A DNA stretch of 64,000 nucleotides from Pecten maximus. Its lineage: Eukaryota. Below, one piece after another: positions 14,227 through 64,000 of the stretch. The notes under the pieces were generated by a model that was not told the DNA's origin, made no database searches, and saw only the letters and a list, made by a program, of their open reading frames with translations. Where the stretch lies: the NCBI RefSeq assembly GCF_902652985.1, contig NC_047015.1, positions 48,546,001 through 48,610,000 of the forward strand. The letters run 5' to 3'. How positions within the stretch are numbered: the first letter of the stretch is position 1; every line of letters starts with the position of its first letter. A program made the translations under genes and the position numbers.

Positions 14227-14229
14227 GCT

Positions 14230-15485: not shown

Positions 15486-15521
<36 letters not shown>

Positions 15522-15697: not shown

Positions 15698-15714
15698 AGC
15701 TTCCTTTTCATCAA

Positions 15715-16587
15715 ACTCTAGACAAGTGTATGAGACTGGAATAGTTTGTTTCGAACAGTTTTGTAAAACTTACCTCTCAAGCTGTTCTTGGCCACCAACC
15801 CAAAAGAGTGTAATGGAGTTTATCGCGTATTTGTGGTCACAAGATATTGCTCCATCTACTGTAAGGGCTTATATTTCTGGTATAGGTTTCAAATGTAAAA
15901 TGAGTGGAGTTATTGATGTGACTCAATTTTTCATTATCAAAAAAAAAAAAATGCTTCTTGGTATGGCAAGATTAGATGCTAGATACGATTCCCGTCTACC
16001 CATTACTCCAGAGCTCCTCACCAAGATTATCAACATTCTACCTTATGTATGTATTTCACCTTATGAAGCAAATATGTTCGCGCCCCCCTTTTTTCAGTAG
16101 CATTTTTTGCATTTTTGCGTGTTGGGGAATTGGTAGCAGCTAAGCAGGGGGAGTATGGTCATGCGTTATTGGCGCATAATGTCTCAGTTTCTACAATAGA
16201 GCGCCTGGTTCAGCTAAAGCTTCCTCATTCAAAAACAGATCAGTGTGGATCTGGGGTTGTCATAACACTACAGGAGAACAAGGAAACTGTTTGCCCATTT
16301 AGGTTAGTTAAGAATTTTATAGCCTCCCGTGGCCATGCCCCTGGGGTGTTTTTCTTTCACTGTAACAATGTTCCGGTGACTCGCTATCAGTTTTCAGCAG
16401 TTTTAAAAGGGCTTTGAATGTAATTGGCATTCATTCAAGTGACTACAAGTCTCACTCCTTTAGGGTGGGGGCAGCTACCGTCGCTTCGTTGAAGGGTTTC
16501 TCTGATGAAAAAATTAAGGAAATGGGTCGTTGGGAGTCAAGAGCATATAAAAAATACATTCGAATTTCAACTGTATCCTTATTGTAG
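15715..16587 (+). pseudogene. Ngaro tyrosine recombinase, frameshifted
   Basis: APSTVRAYISGI, FAFLRVGE (catalytic R), SKTDQ (K), HSFRVGAAT (HxxR, His codon at 16453) and GRWESRAYKKYI (catalytic Y); stop at 16585-16587. Confidence 0.9.
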
Positions 16588-16741
16588 ATCAATTGAATTC
16601 ATTTGTAGTCAGAATACCAGGTTTTTCCTAACAATGTAGCAAAGAAAAGAATTTCCTATGCAGGGTAGCTTTCTGTTCATCATTAAGAATTGGCTCAATT
16701 GCAGTAACTTATTGTAAGTTTAAGTCTTCACAGAGTACCAC

Positions 16742-17356
16742 AAAAGAATTTGGATAGTTGGTTCATCCATTATAAGAAGAGCTTTCTGTCATGCATGGGC
16801 CTCCAAGGAAGGATCACGCCTTGACCTGGGTCGTTATGGTGCCTCCATCTTATGGCATGCCAAAGGAGGTTTAAGGTGGAACAGTGTTATCCGTCATTAA
16901 AACTTCTACTCCCCATTGGGAATCCTCCAGCCATTTTAGTCATCCATTGTGGAGGCAATGAGGTGGGTCAAGTGAATTCAGGATCATTGAGGTATAAAAT
17001 GCTGTCAGATCTGGAAACCTTACAAACTATGTTCCCAAACACGAGAATTGTGTGGTCAGCAATTTTACCGCGTTTACAGTGTAGGGGGGGTTTACAACAT
17101 CAGTCAGTTCGTAAGATACCTGTACGTATTAACAGTCAAATAAGTTCTTACCTAATTAGAAATGGGGGCGGGTATATCCGATACCCAGAGATTACAGATG
17201 AGAACACAGGTCTATTCCTGGATGGGGGTTCATCTAAGTAACTTGGGAAACGATATTTTCCTATACAGGTTACAGCAGGGTCTTCAGGCGTTATTGGGCA
17301 CTAATACTAGTATGACCCCTGGTTTTGGGGAAAGGGGACCATGGTTATGGTGCTAA
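16742..17356 (+). pseudogene. SGNH/GDSL-type hydrolase ORF of the Ngaro element, frameshifted
   Basis: Blocks IWIVGSSII, IHCGGNE and DGVHLS (across a frameshift near 17225). A hydrolase ORF after the YR is known from Ngaro-group elements. Confidence 0.8.
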
Positions 17357-18786: not shown

Positions 18787-18815
18787 ATTATTTAATGGGT
18801 TTTAAGTATAATTAC

Positions 18816-19133
18816 CGAGGCGTTCAGGCTCTCCGCCTTTTCACAGAGATCGTCGAGTTTGCCTTCCCTGTCTCTAATTTTAACGACATTGTCCATCATA
18901 ATGTCTGTTACTTCTTGTGCCTCTTCCCTGAGCTCATCGAGACTTTTTGAGCGCTGGGCTGGCCTTAGTGGAACAATCTCCTCCGGTAGATTCTTAATAT
19001 TTGGAGTACTAGCACTGTGAACATCGTTAAGTTCAAAGAGATACAAATCGTCTTTCGAATATCCATTTTCTTTGTTCTTTTTGTCCTTCTTTTCCTTTTT
19101 CGCCTTTTTATCTTTCTTGTGTTTCTTTTTCAT
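18816..19133 (-). CDS. VAMP/synaptobrevin-like gene copy 1, exon with Lys-rich N-terminus and R-SNARE motif (155 aa spliced product if this ATG is the start)
   Basis: LDELREEAQEVTDIMMDNVVKIRDREGKLDDLCEKAESLNAS aligns by eye to the synaptobrevin coil ([22 protein letters not shown]) with the zero-layer Arg. Donor TCG|GTAATT at 18815. The ATG directly follows an AG acceptor (TTCTAG|ATG), so an upstream exon probably exists. Confidence 0.88.
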
Positions 19134-27100: not shown

Positions 27101-27712
27101 AATCACTAGCCCACAGGGTAAATCACTAGTCCCCAGGATAAATCACTAGACCCCAGGATAAATCACTAGCCCCCAGGATAAATCACTAGTCTCAAGGGTA
27201 AATCACTAGCCCCTTGGGTAAATCACTAGCCCCTTGGGTAAATCACAAGCCCACAGGGTAAATCACTAGCCCCTAGGGTAAATCACTAGTCCCAAGGGTA
27301 AATCACTAGTCCCCAGGATAAATCACTAGACCCCAGGATAAATCACTAGCCCCTAGGGTAAATCACTAGTCCCAAGGGTAAATCACTAGCCCCTTGGGTA
27401 AATCACCAACCCACAGGGTAAATCACTAGTCCCCTAGGTAAATCACTAGCCCCCAGGATAAATCATTAGCCCCTAGGGTAAATCACTTGTCCCCTAGGGT
27501 AAATCACTAGTTCCCAGGATAAATCACTAGCCTCTAGGGTAAATCACTAGTTCCCTGGGTAAATCACTTGTCCCAAGGATAAATCACTAGCCCCCCCCCC
27601 CCCCCCCCTCCCTCCCCCCCCCCCCCCCCCGCAGGGTAAATCACTAGTCCCAAGAGTAAATCACTAGTCCCAAGGGTAAATCACTAGCCCCAAGGGTAAA
27701 TTACTAGCCCCT
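27101..27712. repeat. 20-bp minisatellite (consensus about AATCACTAGYCCCNAGGGTA, roughly 29 copies, one poly-C interruption) in the VAMP copy 2 intron
   Basis: Directly visible 20-nt periodicity; poly-C tract at about 27591-27630. Confidence 0.95.
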
Positions 27713-28814
27713 ATGACAAACTATATCAAGATACTGGGTACAATATTTATAATGTCGCTGTATTATATCATGCATGCCTAGCTGGGAAAATCAAGGTAGA
27801 TTTGTTCCCAGCTTGATTAATTTAATATTTAAAGAAAAGTATCGAGTGCTCGAGATCACTTGCTTAGTAATAAATGTATTTGGTTTTAAACTAAATATAT
27901 TAACTTGAAATTGATTCGCTGATGAATTAGGTTGATGTGGACAGGAAGTATATGCTATATTTATTTGAATTCATGTTAATCCTATCTTTTTAACATAGAT
28001 GCCATCAAAATAAGCATCAAGACTTACTTAATCAGTTATGATATATTGATCTGTCAAACTCTACTTTGTTGATATCTGATATTCCATTTATGAAGGCGCC
28101 TGAAAAAATATCTTAGAGGTAGCTTTGGCATTTGCTTTTTCGTAAATTTCTGAAAGGCCACTTCTTGGCACTGGCGTATATATATACCAGATAAGTGAAA
28201 TATAAGTCCTCAAGGAAACTGTAAATATAAAAGTCGATTTATCACGGTCATTTTAGAAATGTCATTCTGCGCCTGGAAATGTAATTCCGAATATAATATA
28301 TTAAGAGCTCCTGATCGATTCCTGCATTCTTTCATATCTGTACACACGTATATATCTTCCCATGGAAACCTTTCACTTGCACAGATTTTCATTACCCTAT
28401 CAAAATAAACACCCCTGTATAGATAACAAACGTGAGGCTATTTCCATCAATTGAGTCAATCACGTTCCACGTTTACTGGTAAAGAGCACCTCAAGAAAGG
28501 AGATGAATGCCCTATTATAATTAGTATTTGTTTTGTTCATAGATACCACTGCTACTTTATTATAACATGTACCTTGAACAAGTTAACATTTCTGATGAAG
28601 TTATCTATTTGACAGCACATTTCACCTCTTTATGTACCTGTAAAGTGACTTTGAATAGACATCGTAACATCCTGTCATGATACTGATGCCGTAATAAAAA
28701 AACTTTTAATTCAGCTATATTGCAACATCTATACTAATGAGTATCATATCTAATTCTCCGAAGATAAGGTATATTTTAGAAGTATATTATTTAACGGGTT
28801 TTAAGTATAATTAC

Positions 28815-29132
28815 CGTAGCGTTCAGGCTCTCCGCCTTTTCACAGAGATCGTCGAGTTTGCCTTCCCTGTCTCTAATTTTAACGACATTGTCCATCATAA
28901 TGTCTGTTACTTCTTGTGCCTCTTCCCTGAGCTCATCGAGACTTTTTGTGCGCTGGGCTGGCCTTAGTGGAACAATCTCCTCCGGTAGATTCTTAATATT
29001 TGGAGTACTAGCACTGTGAACTTCGTTTGATTCAAACAGATACAAATCGTCTTCCGAATATCCATTGTCTTTCCCCTTTTTGTTTTTCTTTTCCTTTTTT
29101 GCCTTTTTTTCTTGCTTGTGTTTCTTTTTCAT
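28815..29132 (-). CDS. VAMP/synaptobrevin-like gene copy 2, exon with Lys-rich N-terminus and R-SNARE motif (153 aa spliced product)
   Basis: Same 318-nt length as 18816-19133 with a nearly identical SNARE motif; donor ACG|GTAATT at 28814; acceptor TTCTAG before the ATG. Confidence 0.88.
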
Positions 29133-33466: not shown

Positions 33467-34199
33467 AGTCAATGTTCAGTTATGTTAACATATATCATCA
33501 TTTCAGATCAAATAAATATGAGCGAGTTGCGTTAGCCGTTATACTGAAGGGACATTAAGATGTATTTAAATGGGTTTATAACCGTTACATATATATATTA
33601 ATATACATACATGTATATATATGTCAAGTAGTAATAACGACAGTACAGACAAGTAAATTGTCAAATTTTCGAGGCAATCTGCCCCTTTATCAAGACACAG
33701 GTAAATTACATACGATCACATATAGACATAGAACATGGAACAGTTACACAAATATTATGATAATTGCACAAACCGAAACTGAAACCGAATTCAATTTCCA
33801 AGTAAAGAAACATTGTATTTATAGTAAATGATTTTACTGCAAACATATAACCGATCACATGTTTATCAAAAATAGAACTTAATATATATATATACGGTAA
33901 AATATCAAAGTAACGAGGTAACATTATTTAACATTTTTGTAACGTTCTTAAGACATATGCATTATAACATCGTTTCTAAAACATATCCTATTAAAGGGAG
34001 ACTACTCGTGCGTATCTGTCAATTTTAAGACTGATTCGTAGTGTGCCAGCACAATGTCTAATCGACACAAGATATCATTTTCATATCACAAATTGTATTC
34101 GATCAAGTTTTTTTTGTTATGTACTATGGCCTAATAAACAGCATATGCGATCGTAACCTCTGGAGTATAAATGATGAATCAGAATAGGTATTCAAATTT

Positions 34200-34420
34200 G
34201 ATAATTGCACAAAACGAAATTGAAACCGACTTTAATTTCCGAGTAAAGGGACACGTTATTTATAGTAAATGATATTATTACCAAAATATAACTGAACACA
34301 TGTTTATCAAAAATAGAATGGTAATTCCCGGCTATTGACCAATGGACAGACGCCACACCAATACATTAAACCTTATCAGATACCTGGAAATTACCAGCTC
34401 AAAACCATTTTCTATTGATT
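34200..34420 (+). promoter_or_regulatory. Putative promoter of paralogue 1: ISRE-like, two kB-like sites and a CCAAT box
   Basis: GAAATTGAAAC 34216-34226 (duplicate GAAACTGAAAC 33775-33785); GGTAATTCCC 34320-34329 (reverse GGGAATTACC); CCAAT 34339-34343; GGAAATTACC 34386-34395. The block is conserved upstream of paralogues 2, 4 and 7. Confidence 0.55.
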
Positions 34421-34532
34421 CCCGCTATATGCAGAACACTGGAGAAAAGCTGCATGTTGAGGAGCGTATCGGCGCTCTATCAAATTATATATTTACAGTT
34501 GTACGTCTGGAAATATAATCCGAAAAATCAAC

Positions 34533-35594
34533 ATGACGATTTTATCGCTGCGTCCGTCAGAAATTCGCTACAGTCAGGATAGTATCGCTTATTACTTCGG
34601 ATATGGAAGTTATTCTGGAAAACAGATAGGACAGACAGTGGATGCTCTTTTACAACGTGAATGTGACGTTGATGATATTCCAAGAATTACCGTTACTTCA
34701 CGTAACGGGTTATGGTACTCCGGTGACAACAGGCGACTCTGGGTGTTCCGAACATGTGAGGAACTTGGGTTCATCGACAGAGTTCCGGCGATGGAAGGAT
34801 ACGTAAGTTCTTCTAAGTTTACCACTTACAATGATGGTGTGTCAATACGTATCCGTGGGAATCCTGGAGGGCGGATATGGCCACGGAGACATCGTAAAGA
34901 ACTTGTTATCAAAGAACCTGAGCCATCAAACCCTGTCGTGCCAAATGTGCCTGTGGTAAATTCAACACTACGTAACGAATCCGTGGTGATATCATTGGTG
35001 GAGGATGAAGAATTACACCATGGGCTGTCAGATTCTTCTGAAGACTTGACAGACATTCCCAGTGACTGTGGTCAATCCGGTGTGTTAGAATCTTCTGTGA
35101 TTAAACACTGTTCAGAAGAAACAGAGTCTTGTCACGAATCAATGTCATCCAATTTGGAGGATGGTATGCCAATTGGACAAGATAACCACGGATTTGATTC
35201 AGATGAAGATGGCCAACACCACGTCGATGGGACCAAGGATTTAGCATCAACATATGGAGTACGTTTCCGGTCTACTCAGGATGAAATAGTATTGCCAGAC
35301 AATACCTATGTAAGTGTGGATATGTCGACGATGGATGAGTGTCCACTTTCCAGTGACCAGCCCGCTTCGGTGGATGTCGAAACTAACAATTCAACTTTGA
35401 CGGACACTAACCATTCCACTGTGAGTATGCCGGGAGAATCTGTTGATGTTGAAAGTGGACCAAAGGTCAGAGCCTCACGATTAACATTTGAAAACATCCG
35501 TGTTGTCCTTTCAAAATATCGGTATACGATGGTGGTGTGTCTGATATTGGTTGCCATAGTTATCCTGGTACTGATAGTTGTGTTTAACACATAG
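34533..35594 (+). CDS. Family paralogue 1: ParB/Srx-like N-terminal domain, acidic linker, C-terminal transmembrane anchor (353 aa)
   Basis: Uninterrupted ORF. Motifs PSEIRYSQDSI, IPRITV, WYSGDNRRLWVFR and KFTTYNDGVSIRIRG are conserved across paralogues. Hydrophobic tail MVVCLILVAIVILVLIVVF; no signal peptide. Fold assignment is from motif recall only. Confidence 0.9.
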   Translation: MTILSLRPSEIRYSQDSIAYYFGYGSYSGKQIGQTVDALLQRECDVDDIPRITVTSRNGLWYSGDNRRLWVFRTCEELGFIDRVPAMEGYVSSSKFTTYNDGVSIRIRGNPGGRIWPRRHRKELVIKEPEPSNPVVPNVPVVNSTLRNESVVISLVEDEELHHGLSDSSEDLTDIPSDCGQSGVLESSVIKHCSEETESCHESMSSNLEDGMPIGQDNHGFDSDEDGQHHVDGTKDLASTYGVRFRSTQDEIVLPDNTYVSVDMSTMDECPLSSDQPASVDVETNNSTLTDTNHSTVSMPGESVDVESGPKVRASRLTFENIRVVLSKYRYTMVVCLILVAIVILVLIVVFNT

Positions 35595-36229
35595 AATATA
35601 CATTTCCTCACACACACGAAAATCGTCTGTCTTACGTAATACCACTATATATTGAAAAAACTCATGAACCTTGAATCTTACGCGTGTAATCCAGTTTTTG
35701 TATATTCTAATCGACAGGTAATTGTTTGTAAGATAATATGACTGCAGAAACAACCGTCAATATCTGCTTGATTATGATTATGTGAGTGAACACAAACAAT
35801 GTAATTTTTCTTTACTATTCATTTTTTTTTTGAAAACTGGACAGATATTTTTCACGTTAACATCGCACATCCTATGACTTTGATGATATAGATTTGAGAT
35901 ACGCGATTCATTAACAAAGAAAAAGTGCTATCTGTATGTTCACCGAATTAATCAGTAATTGCAGATTATTTTTTTATTGAAATCTGAAAATTATATGTTA
36001 ATTATGTTACTGAAGGCCTGAAGTAGTAATATTCATGAACAAATGAAAAATTACTAATCTTTGTAAACTATACTGCAATAACCTACTTTCAAAAGCTCCT
36101 TACATGCATAGGTACATATGTCTCGTGACTCTAAAAAAGTTGCGGTGGGTTATGTTGTTATTGCTTTGTGTGTGTGTCTGCGTGTATGTGAGGGCAAATG
36201 TGAGTCCGTTCGATTAACAAAACGTGTGT

Positions 36230-37800
36230 ACCAGGCATATATTGAACCCTTCATCTGATTTTGTATCTATCCATAGCACAGTGCCACATTAATTTTTATT
36301 TAGGATCTAACACACTATTTGATAGTATAATTTATTATGTTTATGAAGCCATACCAAAGATAATGATAACCATCAAATGTCTTTTTCTGCTTATTATGTT
36401 AACAATGTGCAGACAGTTTAGATTCAAGTGTGCTTCATCGAGGACAAATTGAAACACGACTTGTGTTTGTTCAACGTCAAAATCATCAGCCTCAGAAAAC
36501 GTTTCTGTTTTAAATGAAATGTATTTAAAGTTATCATTTCTACAATTATAGTGTTAGGTTTAATCACCATTTAATCATAAGGAATGAACGGGGTGATAAA
36601 TCGGTCTAACGATATATAGACAGAAAACCGAATTGCTCCCTTTTTACCGTTCGGAGTCGAGGGGGTAGCTCGGAGTGCAATTCGGTTTTCGGTATACTTC
36701 GATGCACCAATTTGATATCTCGTTAAATTTGTAATTGTTGATAACTTGTTACAAGTTGTTCAAATGACTATGTATGTATTCTACAGATATATATTAAACC
36801 CTCAAATAAACCCTCAATTGATTCTGTGCCTATGCATACTTTAGAGCCACATCAAGTTTTAATTCTATTTGGGATGTAACGTTCCTTTTCATAGAATTAT
36901 CTATTATGTGTTTCAAGTGATTACAAAGATATTGTTTACCATCAACATATCGTTTTCTGTGGATTATGCGAACAATATGCTTGTTTTTTTTAGATTAAAG
37001 CGTGCTTCATCGAGAACATTTGAAACACGACCTGTGTTTGTTAAACATCAATATATTCTCATGTTAGATTTTCGCCCGTCATATGTTAAAATTGAGTTAT
37101 AAGGAATGAACGAGGTTATAAATCGGTCTTTCGATGTATTGACAGAAAACCGAAATGCTCTCTTTTTACCGTTCGGGAGGGGTATTACTTTATGTGCAAT
37201 TCGGCTTTCGGTATACTTCGATGCACCAATTTGATATCTCGTTCAATTTTTATTTATTAATTATTTGTTATAAATTGTTCAAATGACCCTGTTTGTATTT
37301 TATTGATATATACTTACCTCTCATATGATTTTGTGCCTATTCATAGTTTAGTGTCACATCAAGTTCTGGTTTTATTTGGGATGAAACGTTCATTTTCATA
37401 GGATTATCTATTATGTCGTTCTAGTGATTACATGGATATTGTTAACCATCAACATATCGTTTACTTCGGAATATTCGATTAAGATTGAAGTGCGCTTCAT
37501 CTAGGACAATTTGAAACACGACCTGTGTTTGTTCACGGTCAAACTTATCCGCCTTAGAAAATATTACTGTTGTAAATCAAATATATCTTCGTATTAGATT
37601 TTCCCCGTCATATGTTGAAATTTAATCATAAGGAATGAACGAGGTTATAAATCGGTCTTTCGATGTATAGATAGAGAACCGAAATGCTCTCTTTTTACCG
37701 TTCGGGAGGGGTTATTAGTCGAAGTGTAATTCGGTTTTCGGTAACTTCGATGACCAATTTGATATCTCGTTCATTTTTTTATTGTTGATTATTTGTTTTT
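36230..37800. repeat. Three diverged ~500-570-bp tandem units, each with an inverted-repeat hairpin
   Basis: Marker gaaacacgac at 36451, 37022 and 37513; inverted repeat GAAAACCGAATTGC...GCAATTCGGTTTTC at 36623-36690. Confidence 0.8.
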
Positions 37801-39594
37801 AGTGTTCAGAGGACAATGTGTGTATTCATCAAATGATTGCTTTAACAAAAAATTTTTTTTTTAAAAGCCAAAAGCCATCTGTGATAAATTTGTTCATGGT
37901 TTATTTATATGTATGTTATCAATTAAATTTGATTAAATTACCTGTGTTGTTATATTTACTGGTACACTTGTATTAAATGCAAGAAGCAAACGTCATTTTA
38001 TTGAAGAATTGAAAATATCTTTTTCTTCCTGGACACACAGACATATTTAACTCTCTGTTCCATATACACTCCTTTCACAACACTTCAGCGTAAAACAAAC
38101 GTCCATGCAGTGAAACAATTGTCATTTACATGGATACAAGTGTATCACTAAACATTTAAGATAAAGAACATTGTTTAAAATGACATAACCGTTCTCATAC
38201 GATAAAAATGATCACACGCTTCTTACGTATTCTGGTAGGTCTGATTTGACCTCATTGAACTTGGGACGTCGCGTTTGTTCCAATGTAGGTGAAACATGGA
38301 GTAGTAACATCCAGTGTGACAAACAATGACCCTAAATATATCTTCTGTGATTTCTCCTAAGAGAACATGAACGAGACAAAATAATATTTGTGTTCCCCTA
38401 ATGACATATTTCTTTCTTTTAGGGTCTTTTTTTCAATTCTTTCTCCCTTCCATTAAAGTGACACAAAACCAGTGTATATTTAAACACATCTTACATGTAT
38501 GTATCTGTAAGCTTATTAGTTAAGATTGATTGGTAAAAAATGATAGATAGCACATATTTAATTCGATTTATGTTAACATTTAAAATATAATACATTCGGT
38601 TATGACTATTTGTTATCTATTAAGCCCTAATAAAATATCAGAGTGGGTATTTTTGGCAATAGCAGAAAAGAAAATGAAATATCCCTTTCCGATTAAGAGT
38701 AATGAATACTGAAAAATGTACATGAATATAAAAAAAGCTTTACCTCGAAATGTACAAAAAAACGATATATGATATGATATATCAAAATGTTCGTCTAAAT
38801 GTCTTCTATTCATTGGTGTTAAATCCAAAGAGGCAAGTATTACTGACAGCAACAGATACTTGCTAGAAACGTCTTTCCACTAGAAGTGTCTAATAATCTA
38901 ATAAAATCACAATTTTGAAAAACATAAAAAGTAAAACAATTTTCAGATATTAGTCGAGTTTGTGGGACCCCTATTATTTATGCCTGAAGTCTTAACAAAG
39001 GAGAAGCTTTTATTATGGGTGACAACATTAGCGGAAGCCATTTGTAATTTACATAAGGGAGGCCACTCCTATAGGACTACTTTCGACAACAATTAGGCAA
39101 TATATGCTACCTTCAACGAAATATCATTTATTGTTCTCTTTATTCAATGTTAAGTTCTGTTATATATAAACATTTCAGTTCAAATAAACATGAGTGGCAT
39201 GCTTTAACAGTAATAATGAAGAGACATCACCATGTAAATGAATTTATAACGGTTACCATGGGATATATATAGTTAACTACCACATTAATGAGGTAAAATA
39301 TTATTTTAGATTTTTATAACATTCTTTAGACATAATAATGCATGATACATTGCCATCGTTTCTTAATCATTGCCTATTAAGGGGGGACTACTCGTGCGTG
39401 TCTGTCAATATTATGTAAGACTGACCGTAGTTTGCTAGCACATCGTTTAATCTACAACATATATCATTTTCATATCACAAATTGTATAAAGAATTCGATC
39501 AATTTGTTTCGGTTGTTATATACTTTTGCCTAATAAACAGCGATCGTAACCCCTGGAGTACAAATGATGAATCAGAATAGGTATTCAAATTTGA

Positions 39595-39815
39595 TATTTG
39601 CACAAAACGAAATTTAAACCGACTTTAATTTCCTAGTAAAGAAACACTTTATTTATAGTAAATGATATTACTACTAAAATATAACTGAACACATGTTTAT
39701 CAAAAATAGAATGGAAATACCCGGCTATTGACCAATGGACAGACGCCACACCAATACATTAAACCTTATCAGATACCTGGAAATTACCAGCTCAAAACAA
39801 TTTTCTATTGATTCC
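39595..39815 (+). promoter_or_regulatory. Putative promoter of paralogue 2
   Basis: GGAAATACCC 39713-39722, CCAAT and GGAAATTACC 39779-39788; the ISRE-like site is changed to GAAATTTAAAC at 39609-39619. Confidence 0.5.
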
Positions 39816-39925
39816 CGCTAGATGCAGAACACTGGAGAAAAGCTGCATGTTGAGGAGCGTATCGGCGCTCTATCAAATTATATATTTACAGTTGTACGCC
39901 TGGAAATATAATCCGAAAAATCAAC

Positions 39926-40987
39926 ATGACGATTTTATCGCTGAGTCCGTCAGAAATTCGCTACAGTCAGGATAGTATCGCTTATTATTTCGGATATGGA
40001 AGATATTCTGGAACTCAGATCGGACAAACAGTGGACGATCTTTTACAACGTAAATGTTACGTTGATGATATTCCAAGAATTACCGTTACTTCACGTAACG
40101 GGTTATGGTACTCAGGTGACAACAGGCGACTCTGGGTGTTCCGAACATGTGAGGAACTTGGGTTCATCGACAGAGTTCCGGCGATGGAAGGATACGTAAG
40201 TTCTTCTAAGTTTACCACTTACAATGCTGGTGTGTCAATACGTGTCCGTGGGAATCCTGGAGGGCGGATATGGACACAGAGACATCGTAAAGAACTTGTT
40301 ATCAAAGAACCTGAGCCATCAAACCCTGTCGTGCCAAATGTGCCTGTGGTAAATTCAACACTACGTAACGAATCCGTGGTGATATCATTGGTGGAGGATG
40401 AAGAATTACACCATGGGCTGTCAGATTCTTCTGAAGACTTGACAGACATTCCCAGTGACTGTGGTCAATCCGGTGTGTTAGAATCTTCTGTGATTAAACA
40501 CTGTTCAGAAGAAACAGAGTCTTGTCACGAATCAATGTCATCCAATTTGGAGGATGGTATGCCAATTGGACAAGATAACCACGGATTTGATTCAGATGAA
40601 GATGGCCAACACCACGTCGATGGGACCAAGGATTTAGCATCAACATATGGAGTACGTTTCCGGTCTACTCAGGATGAAATAGTATTGCCAGACAATATCT
40701 ATGTAAGTGTGGATATGTCGACGATGGATGAGTGTCCACTTTCCAGTGACCAGCCCGCTTCGGTGGATGTCGAAACTAACAATTCAACTTTGACGGACAC
40801 TAACCATTCCACTGTGAGTATGCCAGGAGAATCTGTTGATGTTGAAAGTGGACCAAAGGTCAGAGCCTCACGATTAACATTTGAAAACATCCGTGTTGTC
40901 CTTTCAAAATATCGGTATACGATGGTGGTGTGTCTGATATTGGTTGCCATAGTTATACTGGTACTGATAGTTGTGTTTAACACATAG
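39926..40987 (+). CDS. Family paralogue 2 (353 aa; 11 amino-acid differences from paralogue 1)
   Basis: Uninterrupted ORF with the same architecture as 34533..35594. Confidence 0.9.
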   Translation: MTILSLSPSEIRYSQDSIAYYFGYGRYSGTQIGQTVDDLLQRKCYVDDIPRITVTSRNGLWYSGDNRRLWVFRTCEELGFIDRVPAMEGYVSSSKFTTYNAGVSIRVRGNPGGRIWTQRHRKELVIKEPEPSNPVVPNVPVVNSTLRNESVVISLVEDEELHHGLSDSSEDLTDIPSDCGQSGVLESSVIKHCSEETESCHESMSSNLEDGMPIGQDNHGFDSDEDGQHHVDGTKDLASTYGVRFRSTQDEIVLPDNIYVSVDMSTMDECPLSSDQPASVDVETNNSTLTDTNHSTVSMPGESVDVESGPKVRASRLTFENIRVVLSKYRYTMVVCLILVAIVILVLIVVFNT

Positions 40988-53980: not shown

Positions 53981-55003
53981 TAAATCTCATAAAGATCAAA
54001 TACTAAAAGATAAAAATATCTCTGTATATATGCTTCTGAATATGCCTAGATATTTTAAATATAAAATATATAGATGGTATTTCTGTACCTAACTTTCGAA
54101 TGTTGTATTTCAAAATTTGTTTCTAACAAAAGAGACATGAATGACGTATCTTAAACGCCTAGATGTGATTGTTGACACGTGGAAATTAAAACAAGTTTCA
54201 ATTTTCAAGCGTTTGCTCATTATTTCAAATACATTTGATTGCAATGTTAAGGGATTCAAAGTCCATTGGCTACTAAGTTATGGAGTGCACATCAAAAAGA
54301 GTGGGTGCTTATAGAGTTACTGTATGACATGATATACTAAAAGTATATAGATACAAATCTCATTTTTTTGTAAAAGAAAAGCAATTGCTTGAAACCCTAA
54401 TATATGTATGTTGAAAAACCTTGAATACAAATTGCGCATGCAAACGTCATATTGAATGTCACATTGTATGCCGTGTTAAAATTCTTATAAGTATTAGCAC
54501 TTTTTATGTATAACATAGTAACAAATGACGTAGGAAGACAATTTATATGGCTCGTGCCCCGCCTTGGCCTCGACCCAACGATCTACGGCACCTAATCACC
54601 TAGCTACAAAGCTTACCTTAAGTCCAAATTCTTATAAATGACGTTTCAACAGAGCAGTGATCATCGGCCCGGTACCCTGGCATGATCATAGTGACAAACC
54701 ATCAACTAGCTGATGTGATTACCTTGATCGCAATTTGTATACATACATCGATGCAAACTGTTAACATATAACAACATTTCAATATGGTACAATTACGACA
54801 GGAATTTCAAATAACGAAAGGAGAGGATTTTATGACTTGTGCTCGGACCGGACGTCGAACTCTCGATTATTTTTTTTCTGTAATAAACGTATGTCCTTAT
54901 TTTGCTACACTTTATAAAATGTTTTCCTTTCCATGGAAGGAATCAACGTGAGAAGTTGAATTTCGCTAATGTTTGTTTAATGTCTTAGCTACGACATTAT
55001 ACA

Positions 55004-55181
55004 TATAGGATATTGAATGGTTTCCCTGTGAATATAACATATACTTCACTCATATGACAGAATATATCGTTCTTCGCATTCGTGAAAAAAAAACAATATT
55101 CTGTAACACTCGTGTACACTCTGTCAAACGAGTGAAATATAATCTATAATCAACGGCAAATTATTCAATTTTCTTTTTATT
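55004..55181. mobile_element. Short palindromic non-autonomous element, same family as 33320-33466
   Basis: tattgaatggtttccctgtgaatataacatatacttcactcatatgacagaat ... gagtgaaatataatctataatcaacggcaaattattcaat. Confidence 0.6.
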
Positions 55182-56139
55182 GCATTTTATGCTAAAAACA
55201 AAATGAAAGACATCGAAAAGTAATAGTCGCAAGAAGTGCGGGAATCAGTAACATAATTCATGACGTTGTCTCTTTGTGACGTTATTCATGACAAACAACT
55301 TTTGAAAGGACTGATCAGTGCAATTTAAGCGTTTTCTGCTGTTTTCGGAGAATGTATGCATGAACACCAAACGCCAAGTTAGTATTTTGTCAAAACTAGT
55401 CTGAATATTTAAGAAATACAGTAAAATAACCCATCTACATCTCTCCGCTTTGATTGGAAAAATCGGCAAATTTTAATGAGGTGAATACAAAGGTTTGCTC
55501 TGATGAAAAGTAAAAGTGTAAAACTTTAAAAGTCCATTCAAAAACGAAAAATTTATATTTTTACTGCAAAATCTGTTTTTGATCCGTTTGATAAATTTCT
55601 TGATTACATAAGGCGATTGATTTCCTTAACTAAAGGCGTAAGGTATATTATGAACTATTACACGGCTAAAATGACTATTTCTCGGTCACTTGCGAACTAT
55701 TGAACACCTGTTTAATTTGATAATTAGTGTTAATAGTTATTTTGGCTGTAAATCGTAAGAAGTAATAAAACGCCATGTGTGACATTAAATTTTCTTATCA
55801 GGATGCATTATATAATGCATAACCCCGTTGTATAAATGCAAACAATACAGTTTGCGCATTTACGGAAGCATTGGGATTAAAGATAGGTCGGAACGGACGG
55901 TATTTACACTACGAACATTTTATAGGCCTCTTTGACCCCTATGAAGTTACATATCAAGACAGGTTCAATGGAAACGTGTTAAAAAGACATGTATATGCAT
56001 GCGTATTCCGACATCTAGATAAGTATATATACGCGCGTGTTAAAATAAAGGTTTGTGTTTATAAACGACAACATCTATATCTGTATCACAATGAAAAGAT
56101 AATGAAACCTTTGTTTGATCACAGGATAGGCCGCATACA

Positions 56140-56520
56140 TGACGGGAAATCTCGCTTTTCTAAGGTAAAATCTAATAGGCTGAGTCGACCGCGTTGTACT
56201 TGTGAAACTGAAACGGGTTCATTGCGGTTAGGCCACAGGTTTTCACTATATATCTAAAACGAAAGTAACTATCGCATTTGCACTCTGTCGACCTTTTGTT
56301 TTACGAAATGGTGTATCTTCAACAAAACTTCATTCCGGTTACACTTTAAGGGCAACATTACAACATTTCCTTATTCTGATTAACCTGAAATGTTCTTTAT
56401 TATACGAGTGTACATCACGCGTAATGTTCATGTTTAAATTAGATAAAAATGACGATAAGAAATTGGATTATCCAATGAATGGTGAACAAACTATTTTTAA
56501 CGCCCGGGAATTTCTACCTT
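56140..56520 (+). promoter_or_regulatory. Putative promoter of paralogue 6 with ISRE-like and kB-like motifs
   Basis: GGGAAATCTC 56144-56153, GAAACTGAAAC 56204-56214, AAAACGAAAGT 56256-56266 and GGGAATTTCT 56506-56515. Confidence 0.45.
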
Positions 56521-56534
56521 CATCAGTTATATAA

Positions 56535-57587
56535 ATGATGTACAGCAAATTAAACAAACAGTTCTCCCATCGTACTCTTTTATGCAAAATGACGGTTTTG
56601 TCCCTGCGTCCTTCCGAAATTCGCTACAGTCAGGGCACTATCGCCAGGTGCTTTAAAAATGGACGCCATTCTGAAACACCGATCGGACAGACATTGGATG
56701 ATCTAATAGAACACAAATGTACCATTCATGATATCAAAAAAATTACCGTGACTTCACGTGACGGAATTTGGTATTCAGGAGACAACAGACGACTATGGGT
56801 GTTCCGAAAATATGAAGAACTTGGAATCATCGACAGAATTTCCGCAAAAGAAGGGTATGTTCATTCGCAAAAGTTCACAACTGACAACCATGGTGTGTCA
56901 GTACGTGTTCGTGGGGATCCTGGTGGACAGGTATGGAGGAATTTTAAAGAGCTGATTATCAAAACAACTGAAACATCAAAAGCTGTTGACATCAGGGAGT
57001 CTAAGGCTAGTACACTACAAAATAACAATTCCGTGGTAATATCACTTGTGGAAGATGACATACAGCCATCAAACCATGAACTGTGTGATTTTTCTGAAGA
57101 GTTGAAAGCCAGTGTCATGATAGAACCTTCGCTGGGTAAAGGATATTCAGAAGAAACTGGTTCTTGTCTCGAACGTACTTCATCCTACGTGGAGGATGTT
57201 ACAACAAAGGGGCAAGAAAACCTAGTAGATGCTGGAAATGAAGATGACCGCCAGCATGTCTGTAGGACCAATGACTTACCTTCAACAGAAAGGATGACTT
57301 TTCGGTCTACTCATGATTCAAATTGTATAGTGTCAAACAATAACTACGTAAGTGCGAACTTGTCTTTGTTGGACGGCTCTCCAGTTTCCAGTCACCATTC
57401 GGTGGATATCCAAACTATCCATTTAACAGTGAGCAGACCTGGGCAATCTGCTGATAGACAGAAACTTACAAAACTGTGTCTAACGCGTATTTCAGAAAAG
57501 TGTATTACTCCACATTGTATATGTTTTATATTTATTGCAAGTATTGTGTTGATGTTTTTGTATTTTGCTATTTTGGTTTTCACTTGA
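56535..57587 (+). CDS. Family paralogue 6; the start homologous to the other paralogues is ATG 56589
   Basis: MTVLSLRPSEIRYSQGTI...WYSGDNRRLWVFR...KFTTDNHG; linker partly alignable to paralogues 1/2 (SVVISLVED); tail CICFIFIASIVLMFLYFAILVF. Confidence 0.9.
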   Translation: MMYSKLNKQFSHRTLLCKMTVLSLRPSEIRYSQGTIARCFKNGRHSETPIGQTLDDLIEHKCTIHDIKKITVTSRDGIWYSGDNRRLWVFRKYEELGIIDRISAKEGYVHSQKFTTDNHGVSVRVRGDPGGQVWRNFKELIIKTTETSKAVDIRESKASTLQNNNSVVISLVEDDIQPSNHELCDFSEELKASVMIEPSLGKGYSEETGSCLERTSSYVEDVTTKGQENLVDAGNEDDRQHVCRTNDLPSTERMTFRSTHDSNCIVSNNNYVSANLSLLDGSPVSSHHSVDIQTIHLTVSRPGQSADRQKLTKLCLTRISEKCITPHCICFIFIASIVLMFLYFAILVFT

Positions 57588-60500
57588 AAATAAAAGAAGA
57601 TGTATTGAAATATATTTCATATGATTTTATGTGCAGTGTAATTCACATAAATACATGACACAGAAACAGAAACACCGAAGGAAGAATTTTTCCAACGGCG
57701 TCTTAATATGACATGAATGCAATCTGATACTTTGATCTCAACGTCTTTTAATTCTTAATGGAATTAATATTTTCATGAAAAAGTTTTATATACATATATA
57801 AGTGTTACTTCTAAGTAAATAATTACATAATCTATAATTTACCACATAACTATGCGTTGGAATTCATTTGCAAGTATATATCATAAGTGATGTGGAAGAT
57901 AGGAAAGTATATACCGGTATTTTAAGATTATCTAACTTTCCGCCCGTTTAGATGTCTTTTCGTTCCGTTGTTTCCATCCTAGACATTATTTTAAGGATGT
58001 CATATAACCCAGATTCGACCTAGATTTACATAGGAATTTAGTTATTGTAAATTAAGGAAAAGACGCTTAACCTCTAAGAACACATTGTCTTTTTTTCAAC
58101 CTTTGATACCAATGTTCAAAATAGAATTGAGAATAATGAATGTTGCTTTATTTATGGATTATACATACACTCTGTATTGAAGAATAGTCCACGAATATGT
58201 ATTTCAGTATAGACATCACACCTTCAGAAATAGATAACATATCGTATACCAGCTATTTTTGTGAGTGTCCATTTTTGCGATATATCGCTGTAGTTTGATA
58301 CCGCATATACATCATGCTAAATATTGTTCTTTTTCGCAGAAAATACTCATGTTGCAAAACTTCTCAACATTGGTAACATTCAGTCAACAGGATGTAGCAA
58401 GTGTTAGACAAATAGGTGTAATCTCAATAAAACTCATATCAAAGTGCTGCAGATAGAAACACTTAAAGCAGCCGGAAAAGAGTTATAGATATCAAGAGAA
58501 TTCAGACTGTAACCTATGACATGAAGGACACTAATAAAGGATATGGTATTATCATATATCATGTATACGCAAATCGCTATATCAATACGATATCATAATA
58601 CTAAAAGAGCTAATTGAAACTAAATCCTGTTATTTCAAAATGAGCATCATGTTATTAAAAGGTATTATGCTGATAGTTTGACAAAAGTGTATGTGAAACT
58701 TGTGATACCGGATTTCTTTTTTGGGGATTTTTTAAATATTATCTACTGGTATGTCTCATTTTTATATTTATGTAACTTGTGAATGCTTATTTTATTGGAA
58801 TGTGCTCGGTACTCTAGGTATAAGGATAAATGAATGTTTCGTTGAAATATTTAGATGAAGCATGAACATTTCTTTAAGCTCAAACATCCAATATAATACC
58901 AAGGTGTATCAATACATGTTTTCAATGTCACTTATAATAATTAGCCTTGAATATCACTCATTAAATGTTCATACCACAGTTTTATCAAACTATGCCATTA
59001 CGCAACTTTGTGTTGTAATGAATGTCACGATATCGATTCCCTTCTTTAGAATGGTGTGGCATGATATTCCTAGTATGAAAAATATACTTTCGGTTTCGAT
59101 TTGATAGCTTTCGTAAAACAGTTTTCGTTATCTTATCAAATATATCGCTGGTAAAATTGATATGATTGTTGAAACATTATTTATTGTCAAGGTCGATATT
59201 CCAAAACGTAATGCAACTTAAGCAGGTGAAAGGTAAAATCTAGATAGGCATCTATATAGTATGTCGGTTTCGTTTTCATATAGTGTGTTACTTACAAAAA
59301 AGGGGCATGACTCTTGGTGGCCAGTGTCTTCTGGTGCAATCTTCTAAATTGCTAAAGTTGGATGGATTTTTACAGCTGAATCAATGATATAACAACCTAT
59401 TAAAAAGTCGCATGCAATACTAGCTTACTTTAGACCGACCGTCCTATTATCATAATTATTATCATTAGTATCCACCATCCCCGATTTTTACTGTAACATT
59501 GTAACTGAAAGGTATTGTTGTACATTTCACGCGAGGTACTATCCTATGTATCATTTATTTCTTTTCTGTCTGTTTCATTCGTCAACCTCCTTCTCCATTA
59601 TACCATTTCTCCTTCATATGACTATAGACAATATGACAATTCAATGGATTGTAAAATTAATTCCTGTATGACACATAAGAACATGTGAAATTGATTTGTT
59701 GTTGTTTTTTTTTTGTTTTTTTTTTTTTGTTGTTGTTTTTTTTTTCAAATTCAATATCGTATGATAAAAGATGTTTAAAACATATTACTGAAAAACTAAA
59801 GAACGAAAATTAACGACAGAGTCATTATCATACTGACAGCAGGCGAACCAGTCCTTACTACTAAATAGCATATATATAAAAAGTCCCATTTGTTCATTTA
59901 TACCAATTATTATCCATAATTCATTTATTAATTATTATTTGTTTGATGCTGTTTGTCATATAAAGTTCATCTGACATCGAGTTATTTTTGCTTAAATTGT
60001 AACAGTTTTGTTTTAGGACTAAATCACCTACAAAGTGAATCGCGTGTTTCTGTCTTCCCCAAAATTCGCGAGCCGGGTTCAATTTTGTTTTTGGCTGGTT
60101 TCATTTTCATAACTTTGCATTGGGATTTCCACACTTTCCGACACTTGTCCTAGAAAGAGAAAATATTCGGATAATAAAGCTGTATTTATTATTTGTTGGA
60201 TATAATTTATATTACAAAAACACAAGCAAATGCGTTTTAAGTTCACATTTTGCATCATCATTAATTACATGTAATACTTGAAATATATTGATATTACCAA
60301 ATACTTCAAAGCAGATATCTTTTCAATTCAAATATTTAACATATTATTGTAAAATGATATTTTTTACACTTTTTTATTTACTAAAATTACATACTAAAGC
60401 TTGCATTTATTGTATTGACTTCGTCTTTGATCGTAGTGTTATGAGGTAAATAAAATTACGTATACGACGTTATCAAAAGGTGATAATCATGTAATATATA

Positions 60501-61574
60501 TATATAATACAATATACACATGATTTAAAGGTATTCCGTAAATGATGGGAGCTATGACCTCGATGAGTGTAATTCAGTGTAATGCGTCCTACGCGCAGGT
60601 AATAGGTTTTAAGCGAAATTCAATTGAAATTATTTGTTTAAATTAAGCTACATGTAAAAGGAGAATAAGCCCTTCAAAGTTTCACCCAATAGCAATACAC
60701 GGTCGTTATAGACATGCGGTCGTTATATATAGGCGGTCGTTTGAGCAGGTTTGACTGTATTTACACTTTCATCTTTTCCAAAAATAATGTCTAGGCATAG
60801 ATTATTTCAATATGGATTTCCGGCTATATTTATATGAGCAGACTTGTTGAATTAGACAGCATAAACTTCTATGATGTGAAACCTAAATGTTCTTTTTTTT
60901 CCATAAAATGTCTTATCTTTAATTGCTTGTTGAAGAAGCAAACTTGGATTTTATAGTGTACTCTAGAACAAAACGAAATTGAAAAGAGGTAACTCGATTT
61001 CCAGTTAACTAAAATGTATCGAAATAGTTAAAGACTCTGAACCATTATGAATTTAAATAGGACCTGCTAACATTTTCAGATTATACAGCCTTCGGTCATG
61101 ATTGTTTGCTATTGATTTAGCCCTAATAAAAATCACAATAGGTATTCTACTTTGGGGATTGCACGAAACGAAAATAAAACTAATAACTATTTCCGACTAA
61201 AAGGACAAACAAACCAAATAATGAAAACAACTGGATCTTCAGTTCAATCTTTTTCCACGGTAAATTGTGCGAATTCCGCAGAAAAATCGAAGAAATCTGT
61301 ATTTTTCAACTGCTTATTATTATGACCTGAACTTTTGAATAAAACTCATAATGACATACCAAATTTATATCAACATTACCTATGAATAATTATCTATTCA
61401 GGCTACATATCTACATGTTTATTGGAACTTCACAATATACTGGCAAATCTGGGGCTGCCAAACATTTTACCCTTGCTTCAACCTTGTATACACAGGGGCA
61501 AATTTCAAAAGCTTATTTTCAATTGGTTGGTTATTCCCAAAATGTATTTCAATATAGAATCAATGCAATAACTA

Positions 61575-61685
61575 TTGAAATAGATTGGTAATTCCAGTGT
61601 TGACAAATGGACTCACGCCAAATCGAATACAGTGAGCTTAATTAATCAGCTGGAAATTACCAACTCAAATCATGTTCTTGTTATT
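61575..61685 (+). promoter_or_regulatory. Putative promoter of paralogue 7, homologous to the paralogue 1/2/4 proximal block
   Basis: GGTAATTCCA 61587-61596 and GGAAATTACC 61652-61661; upstream GAAATTGAAAA 60975-60985. Confidence 0.45.
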
Positions 61686-61690
61686 CTATA

Positions 61691-62344
61691 ATGAGTCCAC
61701 GGAAGACAATCTATAGGTACATTAGTATTTCATCAACGACTGAGCAGAAAATGAAAATGATGGGTCAGACATTGGACAACCAAGTGGAACCCGATTGCTC
61801 CATTCAGAATATTCCTGAAATATCAGTTGTTGCAGATAACGTACGGCCATCAAAGCTATCGTTATCGTCGGAAGAGATGACAGACAATGTCATTGTCTAT
61901 GATAATTCTGCCACGTTAGAACATTTTGGGAGCAATGACTCTTCAGAAAAAAATGGCTGGTGTAAGAAATCAACTTCATCTGATTTGGAGGAAGGCACAG
62001 CAAAAGAGCGCGACAGTCCAGTTTTTGATTCAGATGAAGAATACCAACAGCACGTCTGTGTGACCAAGGATGGGATGCCTTTGCCGTCTACTGAGGATGT
62101 GTTGTCAGACAATAGCTGTGTAAGTGTGGACTTGGATGTACGTCCACTATCCAATGATCAACTTAACAACTCATCGGTGGTGGAAACTAGTCACCCAATA
62201 TTTACTGAGCTGGTGGTACATGATGATATGCCAGATTGTCCACCTGGGTGTTGTGGTCGCTTTGAATTGATTGGAACACTTGTGTTGCACATTTTGCAGC
62301 TTCTCACTGCGTTTATCCTTCCTATAGTGTTTTGTTTTATATAA
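61691..62344 (+). CDS. Family paralogue 7: open frame retaining linker and TM but with most of the N-terminal domain deleted
   Basis: Only GQTLDNQVEPDCSIQNIPEISV remains of the domain. The linker (SEEMTD, SSDLEEG, FDSDEEYQQHV, DNSCVSVD) matches paralogues 1/2/6. Tail LIGTLVLHILQLLTAFILPIVFCFI; the family promoter block is present at about 61575-61685. Confidence 0.7.
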   Translation: MSPRKTIYRYISISSTTEQKMKMMGQTLDNQVEPDCSIQNIPEISVVADNVRPSKLSLSSEEMTDNVIVYDNSATLEHFGSNDSSEKNGWCKKSTSSDLEEGTAKERDSPVFDSDEEYQQHVCVTKDGMPLPSTEDVLSDNSCVSVDLDVRPLSNDQLNNSSVVETSHPIFTELVVHDDMPDCPPGCCGRFELIGTLVLHILQLLTAFILPIVFCFI

Positions 62345-62899: not shown

Positions 62900-64000
62900 C
62901 AAACCTAGGGCGAAAAGAACACTAAAGACACGGTATAAGCTATGTAACCTAGGACGAAAAGGCGTCAAAGACATGATATAGGCTATGTAATCTAGGACGA
63001 AAAGGCGCTAAAGACATAGTATTCGCTATGTAACCTAGGACGAGAAGGACACTATAGACATGCTATTGGCTATGTAATATAGTACGAGAAGAACACTAAA
63101 GATATGGTATAGGCTACAATATATGTAAACTAGGACGGGAAAGACACTTAAGACATGGTATAGGCTATGTAACCTAGTACTAGAAGGACACTAAAACCAT
63201 GGTATAGGCTATGTAACCTAGGACGAGAAGGCGCTAAAGACATGGTATACATGTAGGCTATGTAACCTAGGACGAGAAGGACACTAAAGACATGGTATAG
63301 GCTATGTAACCTAGTACGAGAAGGACACTAAAACCATGGTATAGGCTATGTAACCTAGGACGAGAAGGCGCTAAAGACATGGTATACATGTAGGCTATGT
63401 AACCTAGGACGAGAAGGACACTAAAGACATGGTATAGGCTATGTAACCTAGTACGAGAAGGACACTAAAACCATGGTATAGGCTATGTAACCTAGTACGA
63501 GAAGGACACTAAAACCATGGTATAGGCTATGTAACCTAGGACAAGAAGGCGCTAAAGTCATGGTATAGGCTATGTAACCTAGGATGAGATGGACACTAAA
63601 GACATAGTATAGGCTTTGTAACCAAGGACGAGAAGGACACTATAGACATGCTATTGGCTATGTAACCTAGGACGAGAAGAACACTAAAGACATGGTATAG
63701 GTTATGTAACCTAGGACGAGTAGGACACTTCAAACTTGGCTATGTAACCTAGGACGAGTAGGAGACTAAAGACATAGTATTGGCTATGTAACCTAGAACG
63801 AGTAGGATACTTAAGACATGGTATTGGCTATGTAACCTAGGACGAGTAGGACTCTTCAAACTTGGCTATGTAACCTAGGACGAGTAGGACACTTAAGACA
63901 TGGTATTGGCTATGTAACCTAGGACGAGTAGGACACTTCACACTTGGCTATGTAACCTAGGTCGAGTAGGACACTAAAGACATCGTATTGGCTATATAAC
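62900..64000. repeat. 44-bp satellite/minisatellite (GGCTATGTAACCTAGGACGAGAAGGACACTAAAGACATGGTATA), running off the window end
   Basis: Directly visible periodicity (ggct at 63163 and 63207); longer and shorter unit variants are present. Confidence 0.95.

Follow-up and report, generated by a model that had tools for sequence, protein, structure and literature searches.

The window, a 64,000-nucleotide stretch of the genome of the scallop Pecten maximus, contains a tandem array of single-exon genes belonging to one family. The family protein begins with an N-terminal domain of predicted ParB/sulfiredoxin fold, continues through a disordered linker, and ends in a membrane tail. Across the scallop genome there are 17 family loci, 11 of them in four clusters unlinked to the window array. 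All seven paralogues described here lie on the plus strand. Paralogue 1 (p1; 34533..35594) encodes 353 amino acids: a ParBL1-like domain (residues ~1-118), followed by an acidic linker and a C-terminal hydrophobic tail. Contigs from RNA runs cover its coding sequence and contain no intron joint; they are present in 4 of the 4 runs examined, which come from 3 studies and are of unspecified condition. Paralogue 2 (p2; 39926..40987, 353 aa) is a very recent duplicate of p1; since 164 of 166 four-fold sites are identical, the two are not independent cases. Paralogue 3 (p3; 45368..46177, 269 aa) has a weak hydrophobic tail, and paralogue 4 (p4; 51838..52419) encodes 193 aa counted from the ATG at 51838. 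RNA contigs cover p2 to p4 little or not at all, which does not indicate silence. Paralogue 6 (p6; 56589..57587, 332 aa) has another in-frame ATG 54 bp upstream. Two copies in the window are broken. Paralogue 5 (p5; 53430..54067) is a pseudogene with stops and frameshifts; its DNA matches p4 at 68%, and its tblastn match is fragmented and contains a stop. Paralogue 7 (p7; open frame 61646..62344) keeps the linker and tail and lacks the ParBL1-like domain, with which tblastn finds no match there.

The structure model of the domain has a pLDDT of 93.6. The best 9 VIA rows and all Foldseek matches listed are ParB/Srx-fold proteins, a superfamily that includes ParB and Noc CTPases, sulfiredoxin, SerK/SbnI kinases, and Osa; the match scores are modest (best Z 7.6, rmsd 2.5, 92 aligned; best E 5e-4). 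Like these enzymes, the scallop domain conserves an arginine in the helix that follows strand 3; unlike them, it has DNRR instead of the GxxR box, shares 6-17% identity with them, and has no Pfam ParB_N match. Among 101 homologues, R68-L69-W70 is invariant and D65-N66-R67, Q15, and S17 are nearly so. None of these 101 members matches Pfam ParB_N (PF02195) or sulfiredoxin, and an Atlas lead reached only 0.75. Pfam, NCBIfam, PADLOC, and PDB sequence searches with the domain return no meaningful family, and no relative is present in the viral contigs. Orthologues occur in Mizuhopecten (KP79_PYT06500/06501, LOC110451197) and oyster (LOC144619595, LOC128185469).

Tox-ParBL1 of the polymorphic toxins is described, in the part of the account consulted, by a predicted ParB fold, a conserved Ser/Thr near the N-terminus, and an [NT][RT][RT] motif (PMC3482391). 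Set against this description, the 101 sequences have S17 and N66-R67-R68, and the predicted structure supplies the ParB/Srx fold; by fold and motif as described, the modelled domain fits Tox-ParBL1. The setting differs: in scallop the N-terminal domain is host-encoded, joined to a linker and membrane tail in single-exon tandem genes, with neither a secretion module nor an immunity gene. Such missing toxin context is expected for eukaryotic members. Tox-ParBL1 is recorded in metazoa, plants, and stramenopiles; the same account, in the part consulted, gives neither measured activity nor immune regulation (PMC3482391).

Upstream of these genes lie interferon-stimulated-type (ISRE) motifs. An earlier note on this DNA had placed GAAANNGAAA at 33775, 34216, 38670, 48835, 56204, and 60975, with a weaker site at 45139; the six are exact and the seventh has one mismatch. 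We define a strict ISRE as GAAANYGAAAS and a proximal one as lying ≤600 bp upstream. Four strict sites were absent from that list, at 48578 (+) and at 59097, 59277, and 60108 (-). The proximal strict ISRE of p1 (34216..34226, +) lies 317 bp upstream of the ATG. Its homologue at p7 (61170..61180, +) is mutated in the second GAAA, as is the proximal ISRE of p2 (39609..39628, +); the p1 and p7 copies are identical at 20 of 23 positions, against 51-59% in their flanks. An upstream duplicate of the p1 element (33775..33805, +) joins a strict ISRE at 33775-33785 to a variant of the STAT-type GAS site, and 33758-33877 is 86% identical to 34199-34318. At p3 a degenerate ISRE (45139-45149) is followed by a perfect GAS, TTC-N3-GAA, at 45159-45167 (45139..45167, +).

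One orphan copy of the element (38670..38679, +) is 1256 bp upstream of p2, ~1.26 kb from the next ATG; a tandem orphan occupies 48572..48588 (+; strict at 48578); and an orphan strict ISRE at 48835..48845 (+), a copy of the same promoter piece, has the p4 ATG 3.0 kb downstream. No GAAANNGAAA occurs within 1.5 kb of p4. Between p6 and p7 are the three minus-strand sites (59087..60108), and a second upstream element copy before p7 (60975..60984, +) matches GAAANNGAAA. The promoter of p6, previously described as non-homologous and as carrying both motif types, indeed has no alignable homology to the others and does have a strict ISRE (56204..56214, +), with no GAS behind it; its two kB-like decamers (56144..56153 and 56506..56515, both +) each depart from the consensus by one mismatch.

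Many window ISREs are copies of one ancestral promoter piece, several of them orphaned from genes. The descent of most window sites from this piece, the mutated proximal copies at p2 and p7, and two orphans would suit an account in which A-rich sequence matches the motifs by chance, or tandem duplication has left dead copies behind. The background comparisons point the other way. Strict ISREs number 8 in window positions 33001-62800 and 0 in 1-33000, against 0.84 expected in the former from a background rate of 9 matches per 318 kb (P=3e-6); random 500-bp tiles contain one in 2 of 400. Across the family, 12 of 17 loci have a proximal strict ISRE, compared with 1 of 38 control genes (p about 1.6e-7 to 2e-7), the controls being 30 GPCR genes (1 with a site) and 8 HSP70 genes (0). 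Family copies that bear an ISRE include p1, p6, p8, L008, L011, and L014-L016. The enrichment persists outside the window array, where promoters are unalignable: 9 of 11 loci at the four unlinked clusters have the site. With homologous promoters merged the count is 11/14, and by genomic cluster 4/5. Random-tile, unlinked-locus, and control-gene comparisons have already largely refuted chance or dead copies, and a footprint that exceeds its flanks also speaks against them; we find that account scarcely credible.

Other results speak against the ISRE as a sign of immune control. Among the intended positive controls, a strict ISRE ≤600 bp upstream was found at 0 of 10 IFI27-like loci and 0 of 4 IRF loci; 4 of these 14 have one in upstream stretches of 5.7-10 kb, a figure that is not clearly informative because the starts of these multi-exon genes are unplaced. 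Among animal-like homologous loci on metagenome contigs, only 1 of 16 has a strict site within 600 bp. Some of these 16 loci seem to have 5'-UTR introns, and their flanks are short.

The earlier note paired the ISREs with NF-kB-like sites and inferred genes inducible by pathogens or dsRNA. Its eight Rel-like decamers sit where it placed them, and none fits GGRRNNYYCC or GGGRNWYYCC: seven have one mismatch and the one at 61587 has two. A kB-CCAAT-kB block is, as that note observed, kept upstream of p1 (34320..34395, +; kB-like, CCAAT, CCAAT, and kB-like parts at 34320, 34339, 34358, and 34386, the decamers with one mismatch each), p2 (39713..39788, +; 74/76 identical to p1, with two substitutions in the first kB-like site), p7 (61587..61661, +; two mismatches in the first decamer) and, in degenerate form, p4 (51659..51722, +), while the flanks have diverged. 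With block limits set after the alignment was viewed, p1 and p7 agree at 17/19, 25/33, and 17/20 positions (flanks 31/61 and 53/110), and p1 and p4 at 15/19, 22/33, and 16/20 (flanks 38/61 and 57/110). Conservation above the flanks is limited to the p1/p4/p7 subfamily, where the kB-like decamers reach 79-89% against ~50-60%. Judging from this alignment, the block marks a genuine footprint within a single subfamily. Neither p3 nor p8 nor any of the 11 unlinked loci, which have no promoter homology to it, carries the block.

A leading role for Rel draws on this conservation, on the two one-mismatch sites of p6, and on the two Rel-homology genes in the genome. Against it, none of the 17 family promoters has a canonical Rel site, and the share with a one-mismatch site (8/17) shows no enrichment over random tiles (105/320; p=0.16) or GPCR loci (12/30). 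NF-kB as a family-wide signal is rejected on these counts. Because the sites are non-canonical, unenriched, and confined to one subfamily (p1/p2/p4/p7), the Rel claim is unsupported as a family trait, and we regard a role for Rel as a main co-driver with IRF as quite improbable.

The recurring partner, overlooked in the earlier note, is a putative GAS site of STAT type, which follows the ISRE after 9-16 bp in 6 family promoters. With a relaxed ISRE pattern, 6 of 16 promoters have a perfect GAS ≤30 nt behind it (offsets +9, +9, +10, +10, +11, and +16), and the background rate is 0.7% per 30 nt. The ISRE+GAS composite occurs in 5 of 17 family promoters against 1 of 505 tiles, a count that rises to 10/17 with a variant GAS chosen post hoc. 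All 8 aligned window copies of the GAS-like element keep TTTCC unchanged. Counting against the reading, p1, the best-transcribed copy, has only a variant GAS (TTC-N3-GTA, 34237..34246, +), 10 bp behind the ISRE; STAT would presumably bind this variant.

The antiviral gene viperin has the same pair ~130 bp upstream of its ATG, at a site that passes the relaxed pattern only. Genome-wide, ISRE followed by GAS has 79 matches, against 9 for the reversed control, 9 for ISRE with reversed GAS, and 29 for GAS with reversed ISRE. Inspection by eye assigns ~36 of the 79 to repeat copies, LINE coding sequence, or near-duplicates; the remaining ~43 compare with ~13 expected (p=3e-4). Matches occur near Mab-21/cGLR, B-box TRIM, TLDc, RING, and ankyrin genes and a GTPase; at 20 extra composite loci, Pfam gave no match in 14. 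The converse order is also enriched (40 versus 4), so a fixed order genome-wide is rejected. Both orders likewise occur in mammalian ISRE+GAS composite interferon-stimulated genes, where the two sites are close in proximal promoters; in the part of that study consulted, human spacing runs from 0 to <415 bp in random order (PMC10287828). The scallop family differs in placing the GAS 9-16 bp behind the ISRE.

Putative IRF-type control is well supported by the tests outside the window: strict sites at 9 of 11 unlinked loci, the architecture shared with viperin, and the presence of IRF genes uphold this half of the earlier note's regulatory proposal. STAT genes are present too, and a STING search gave two exon matches. 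Molluscs (as judged in oyster) lack IRF3/7 homologues (PMC5557890). According to the parts of the sources consulted, oyster IRFs activate ISRE reporters (PMC5557890) and scallop and oyster IRFs bind ISRE, per review (PMC13524488); within this system (CgIRF1/2/8, CfIRF1/2), poly(I:C) or virus induces the IRFs (PMC5557890, PMC13524488). Those tests relied on mammalian ISRE reporters or on the CgIFNLP promoter, and the parts consulted name neither the scallop family nor an ISRE+GAS pair (PMC5557890, PMC13524488). Counting against the IRF/STAT reading, cGAMP induction in Nematostella is not blunted by IRF or STAT knockdown, in the portion consulted (PMC8713801).

Our literature search, which did not extend to most subscription journals or to supplements on bioRxiv, found nothing on an immune role of the family or on an ISRE+GAS composite in any invertebrate; family genes may therefore already stand under other identifiers in challenge tables for oyster or scallop. 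ParB annotation is absent from the supplements of PMC7064767, PMC7773633, and PMC8713801, and homologue identifiers were not found in the literature searched or in two supplement sets.

Functional sites need not mean induction by infection. IRF-family or PRDM1/Blimp-1-type sites could instead serve constitutive or haemocyte-specific expression, or repression. Transcription of p1 in three studies, none with a known challenge, is compatible with this, as is GAAAGTGAAAG in L005 and L008, which is the PRDM1 motif as well. Haemocyte proliferation is also under CgIRF1 and CgIRF8, in the part of the review consulted (PMC13524488). The GAS pairing and an architecture shared with viperin and cGLR genes fit an inducible antiviral program, and we consider constitutive or repressive use unlikely, if worth keeping in view.

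Most family copies sit behind viperin's two-part switch and are therefore likely to be immune-induced defense genes. From the sequence evidence, we think it probable that the family, with its enriched ISRE often followed by GAS, is switched by IRF and STAT in infection and makes a defense enzyme of predicted ParB/sulfiredoxin fold, Tox-ParBL1-like; induction by pathogen or dsRNA we infer. An RLR/cGLR-STING or cytokine signal would activate a scallop IRF, which would bind the ISRE, and a STAT dimer on the adjacent GAS could provide feed-forward or sustained expression. In the p1/p2/p4/p7 subfamily, the kB-CCAAT-kB block may be an add-on bound by NF-Y and possibly Rel. The protein may hydrolyze or transfer phosphate on a nucleotide or nucleic acid via its invariant NRR motif, and in the window array the C-terminal tail would anchor it to a membrane.

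Bivalves lack a clear interferon yet respond to viruses in an interferon-like way, and we know of no description of their promoter code or of most of their antiviral effectors. The tight ISRE+GAS element common to viperin, cGLRs, TRIMs, and the scallop family offers a regulon that can be tested and suggests that IRF and STAT cooperate outside vertebrates. More tentatively, and with the odds somewhat against so broad a claim, scallops may possess a vertebrate-style IRF+STAT regulon readable from the genome alone, which would count among its most expanded targets a new antiviral effector: a ParBL1 enzyme family, derived from bacterial toxins, that modifies or degrades nucleotides or nucleic acids at membranes. 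Eukaryotic ParBL1-like domains were described in 2012 with no function assigned; the family would offer a first lead to one, and makes these proteins candidate effectors derived from bacterial conflict, like viperin or cGAS. In practice, the genes may supply markers of disease resistance in shellfish.

A tandem array of single-exon genes spans 34.5-62.3 kb of the window. Paralogues 1 (34533), 2 (39926), 3 (45368), 4 (51838) and 6 (56589) are intact genes, paralogue 5 is a pseudogene, paralogue 7 lacks the N-terminal domain, and an eighth family copy lies just outside the window. Eleven further family loci occupy four other clusters; the domain-bearing loci total 17. The closest named homologues of the proteins are from Mizuhopecten (79%) and Ylistrum (74%). 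Paralogues 1 and 2 share 164 of 166 four-fold sites. Such turnover, with copies born and lost, is compatible with a host-pathogen arms race, without proving one. In all four RNA runs examined (3 studies, conditions unspecified), contig cover of paralogue 1 starts near 34552 and extends into a long 3' UTR without an intron joint; the sequence directly 5' of its ATG is therefore probably the promoter.

An earlier note had reported ISRE-like and NF-kB-like motifs upstream of the paralogues. Its six GAAANNGAAA sites are all present base for base, and the site at 45139, which it called weaker, carries one mismatch. The strict ISRE pattern GAAANYGAAAS occurs 8 times in the array versus 0.84 expected, and between paralogues 1 and 7 the core keeps 20 of 23 bases and the flanks 51-59%. 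The evidence within the window is nonetheless weaker than it appears, because paralogues 1 and 2 are near-identical, five sites (33775, 34216, 38670, 48835 and 60975) are copies of a single promoter piece, the next ATG is 1.26 kb away from 38670 and 3.0 kb away from 48835, and paralogues 2 and 7 have mutated proximal copies. The interval from the orphan ISRE at 48835 to paralogue 4 contains, at 49630-49670 and 50480-50775, a remnant resembling the pre-ATG sequence of paralogue 1 and hydrophobic open frames; the frames have no Pfam match, and the whole may represent an insertion or a further copy that has decayed.

Family loci outside the window, which the earlier note had not seen, provide an independent test set. 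Nine of the 11 loci outside the array carry a strict ISRE within 600 bp upstream. Across the family the count is 12/17 (11/14 with alignable promoters merged) versus 1/38 control loci (1/30 GPCR and 0/8 HSP70; p=1.6e-7), with 11 of the 12 on the sense strand. Since the strict pattern was refined post hoc, with the sites already known, the count with the earlier note's own pattern is the fairer one: 12/19 family regions (the 17 loci plus paralogues 5 and 7; two of the 12 matches are trivial A-rich ones) versus 21/800 background tiles. The two counts agree; the enrichment over background that the note had named as a check is present, and the ISRE is genuine and family-wide. Ten IFI27-like and 4 IRF loci showed no strict ISRE within 600 bp, perhaps because of 5' introns. 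Of 16 animal-like homologous loci on metagenome contigs, only one has a strict proximal ISRE, so the pattern is shown for Pecten maximus only; some of these loci show signs of 5'-UTR introns, and in one pair the domain sits within a longer protein. In the second cluster (L008-L011), the upstream regions repeatedly show TGACGT (CRE/ATF-like) sites close to the ISREs; family-wide these sites are weakly enriched (6/19 sense, p=0.017).

A second element, additional to the motifs of the earlier note, accompanies the ISRE. Alignment of the eight window copies reveals an invariant TTTCC shortly behind it. TTC-N3-GAA is the STAT-binding GAS consensus, and a perfect match lies at +9 to +16 behind the ISRE in 6/16 family promoters (chance 0.7% per 30 nt); a variant differing by one base lies at +10 to +12 in paralogues 1 and 2 and in two other family loci (L014, L016). 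In the viperin gene, a relaxed ISRE and a perfect GAS precede the ATG by about 130 bp; 1/505 background tiles shows this arrangement.

Genome-wide, ISRE-then-GAS yields 79 matches versus 9 for the reversed pattern; control pairings give 9 (ISRE with reversed GAS) and 29 (GAS with reversed ISRE), and the opposite order, GAS-then-ISRE, 40 versus 4. By eye, LINE coding sequence accounts for 13 of the 79 and three dispersed repeats for another 23, with some near-duplicates besides; discounting all these leaves about 43, versus about 13 expected (p=3e-4). An open-frame survey covered 50 of the 79 loci. Seventeen chosen frames from the first 30 gave three Pfam matches (Mab-21/cGLR, B-box and TLDc); 89 frames from 20 further loci gave a RING protein, an ankyrin protein, a weak GTPase, a weak PPR, a THAP and a Gypsy element, with no Pfam match at 14 of the 20. 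The genome contains IRF, STAT and Rel genes, and one ISRE+GAS locus (L256/L174, G000:C11:19026084), accompanied by a second strict ISRE, precedes an IRF gene by 14-17 kb, on the opposite strand. One dispersed repeat (L140, L159, L163; 10/79 matches) bears two ISREs, a strong GAS and two CCAAT boxes. Some mammalian LTRs spread inducible promoters, and by analogy this repeat could spread ready-made ones. A second ISRE+GAS repeat (L155, L160, L161; 10/79) comes in pairs separated by 6.6-10 kb, next to frames of DIRS-type appearance (by eye); it may represent the terminal repeats of an immune-signal-responsive retrotransposon. The window itself holds a retrotransposon remnant at 13205-17241 (+) with an RVT_1 match and, by eye, tyrosine-recombinase-like, DIRS-like frames; a duplicated pair of synaptobrevin-domain genes, lysine-rich at the N-terminus, at 18792-19133 and 28791-29132 (-) (PF00957 on the first); and tandem repeat arrays at 27101-27720 and 62902-64000.

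The NF-kB part of the earlier claim is weak. All eight Rel-like decamers are present, yet each departs from GGRRNNYYCC, seven at one position and one at two. Canonical kB sites occur in 0/17 family promoters, and one-mismatch sites in 8/17 versus 105/320 tiles and 12/30 GPCR loci; the enrichment named as a check is absent. The kB-CCAAT-kB block is indeed kept in paralogues 1, 2, 4 and 7 (decamers 79-89%, flanks about 50-60%): it is a real footprint and a feature of this subfamily, and either Rel or some other factor may bind it.

The 125-residue domain is covered by no Pfam family; its predicted fold (pLDDT 93.6) best matches ParB, Noc, sulfiredoxin, Atu1540 and SerK (E 5e-4; Z 7.6, rmsd 2.5, 92 aligned). 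PMC3482391 describes Tox-ParBL1 as a ParB-related polymorphic-toxin domain also present in metazoa and other eukaryotes; the conserved serine and NRR motif of the scallop domain fit that description. NTPase, phosphotransferase or nuclease activity is reported for ParB/Srx domains (PMC5512222). Paralogues 1, 2, 4 and 6 add a strongly hydrophobic C-terminal tail. At E 0.001 the domain has 1047 representatives. It also occurs in non-animal-looking and bacterial contigs and therefore predates any IRF control. A bacterial stand-alone homologue (L250:4007-4557; hhalign probability 99%) is followed by a DUF7660 gene, resembling a toxin-immunity pair, and two homologues (P0163, P0186) are fusions of the domain, one from a clam with an HSP70-like (HSPA12) domain and one from a dinoflagellate with alpha-kinase/vWA.

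Judged from the promoters, IRF probably binds the ISRE upstream of family genes, in many copies with a STAT dimer on the adjacent GAS, and this binding would induce the genes in an interferon-like response. Such a mechanism would parallel human ISRE+GAS composite genes (PMC10287828), and bivalve IRFs are reported to bind or activate ISRE (PMC5557890 and PMC13524488). Our literature search, which had little reach into subscription journals, found no report of the family. The fuller case, an IRF/STAT regulon in which the family's product is an antiviral enzyme attacking nucleotides or nucleic acids, we advance only tentatively, as somewhat doubtful. The family stands as a candidate ISG-like one with an uncharacterised toxin-type fold.
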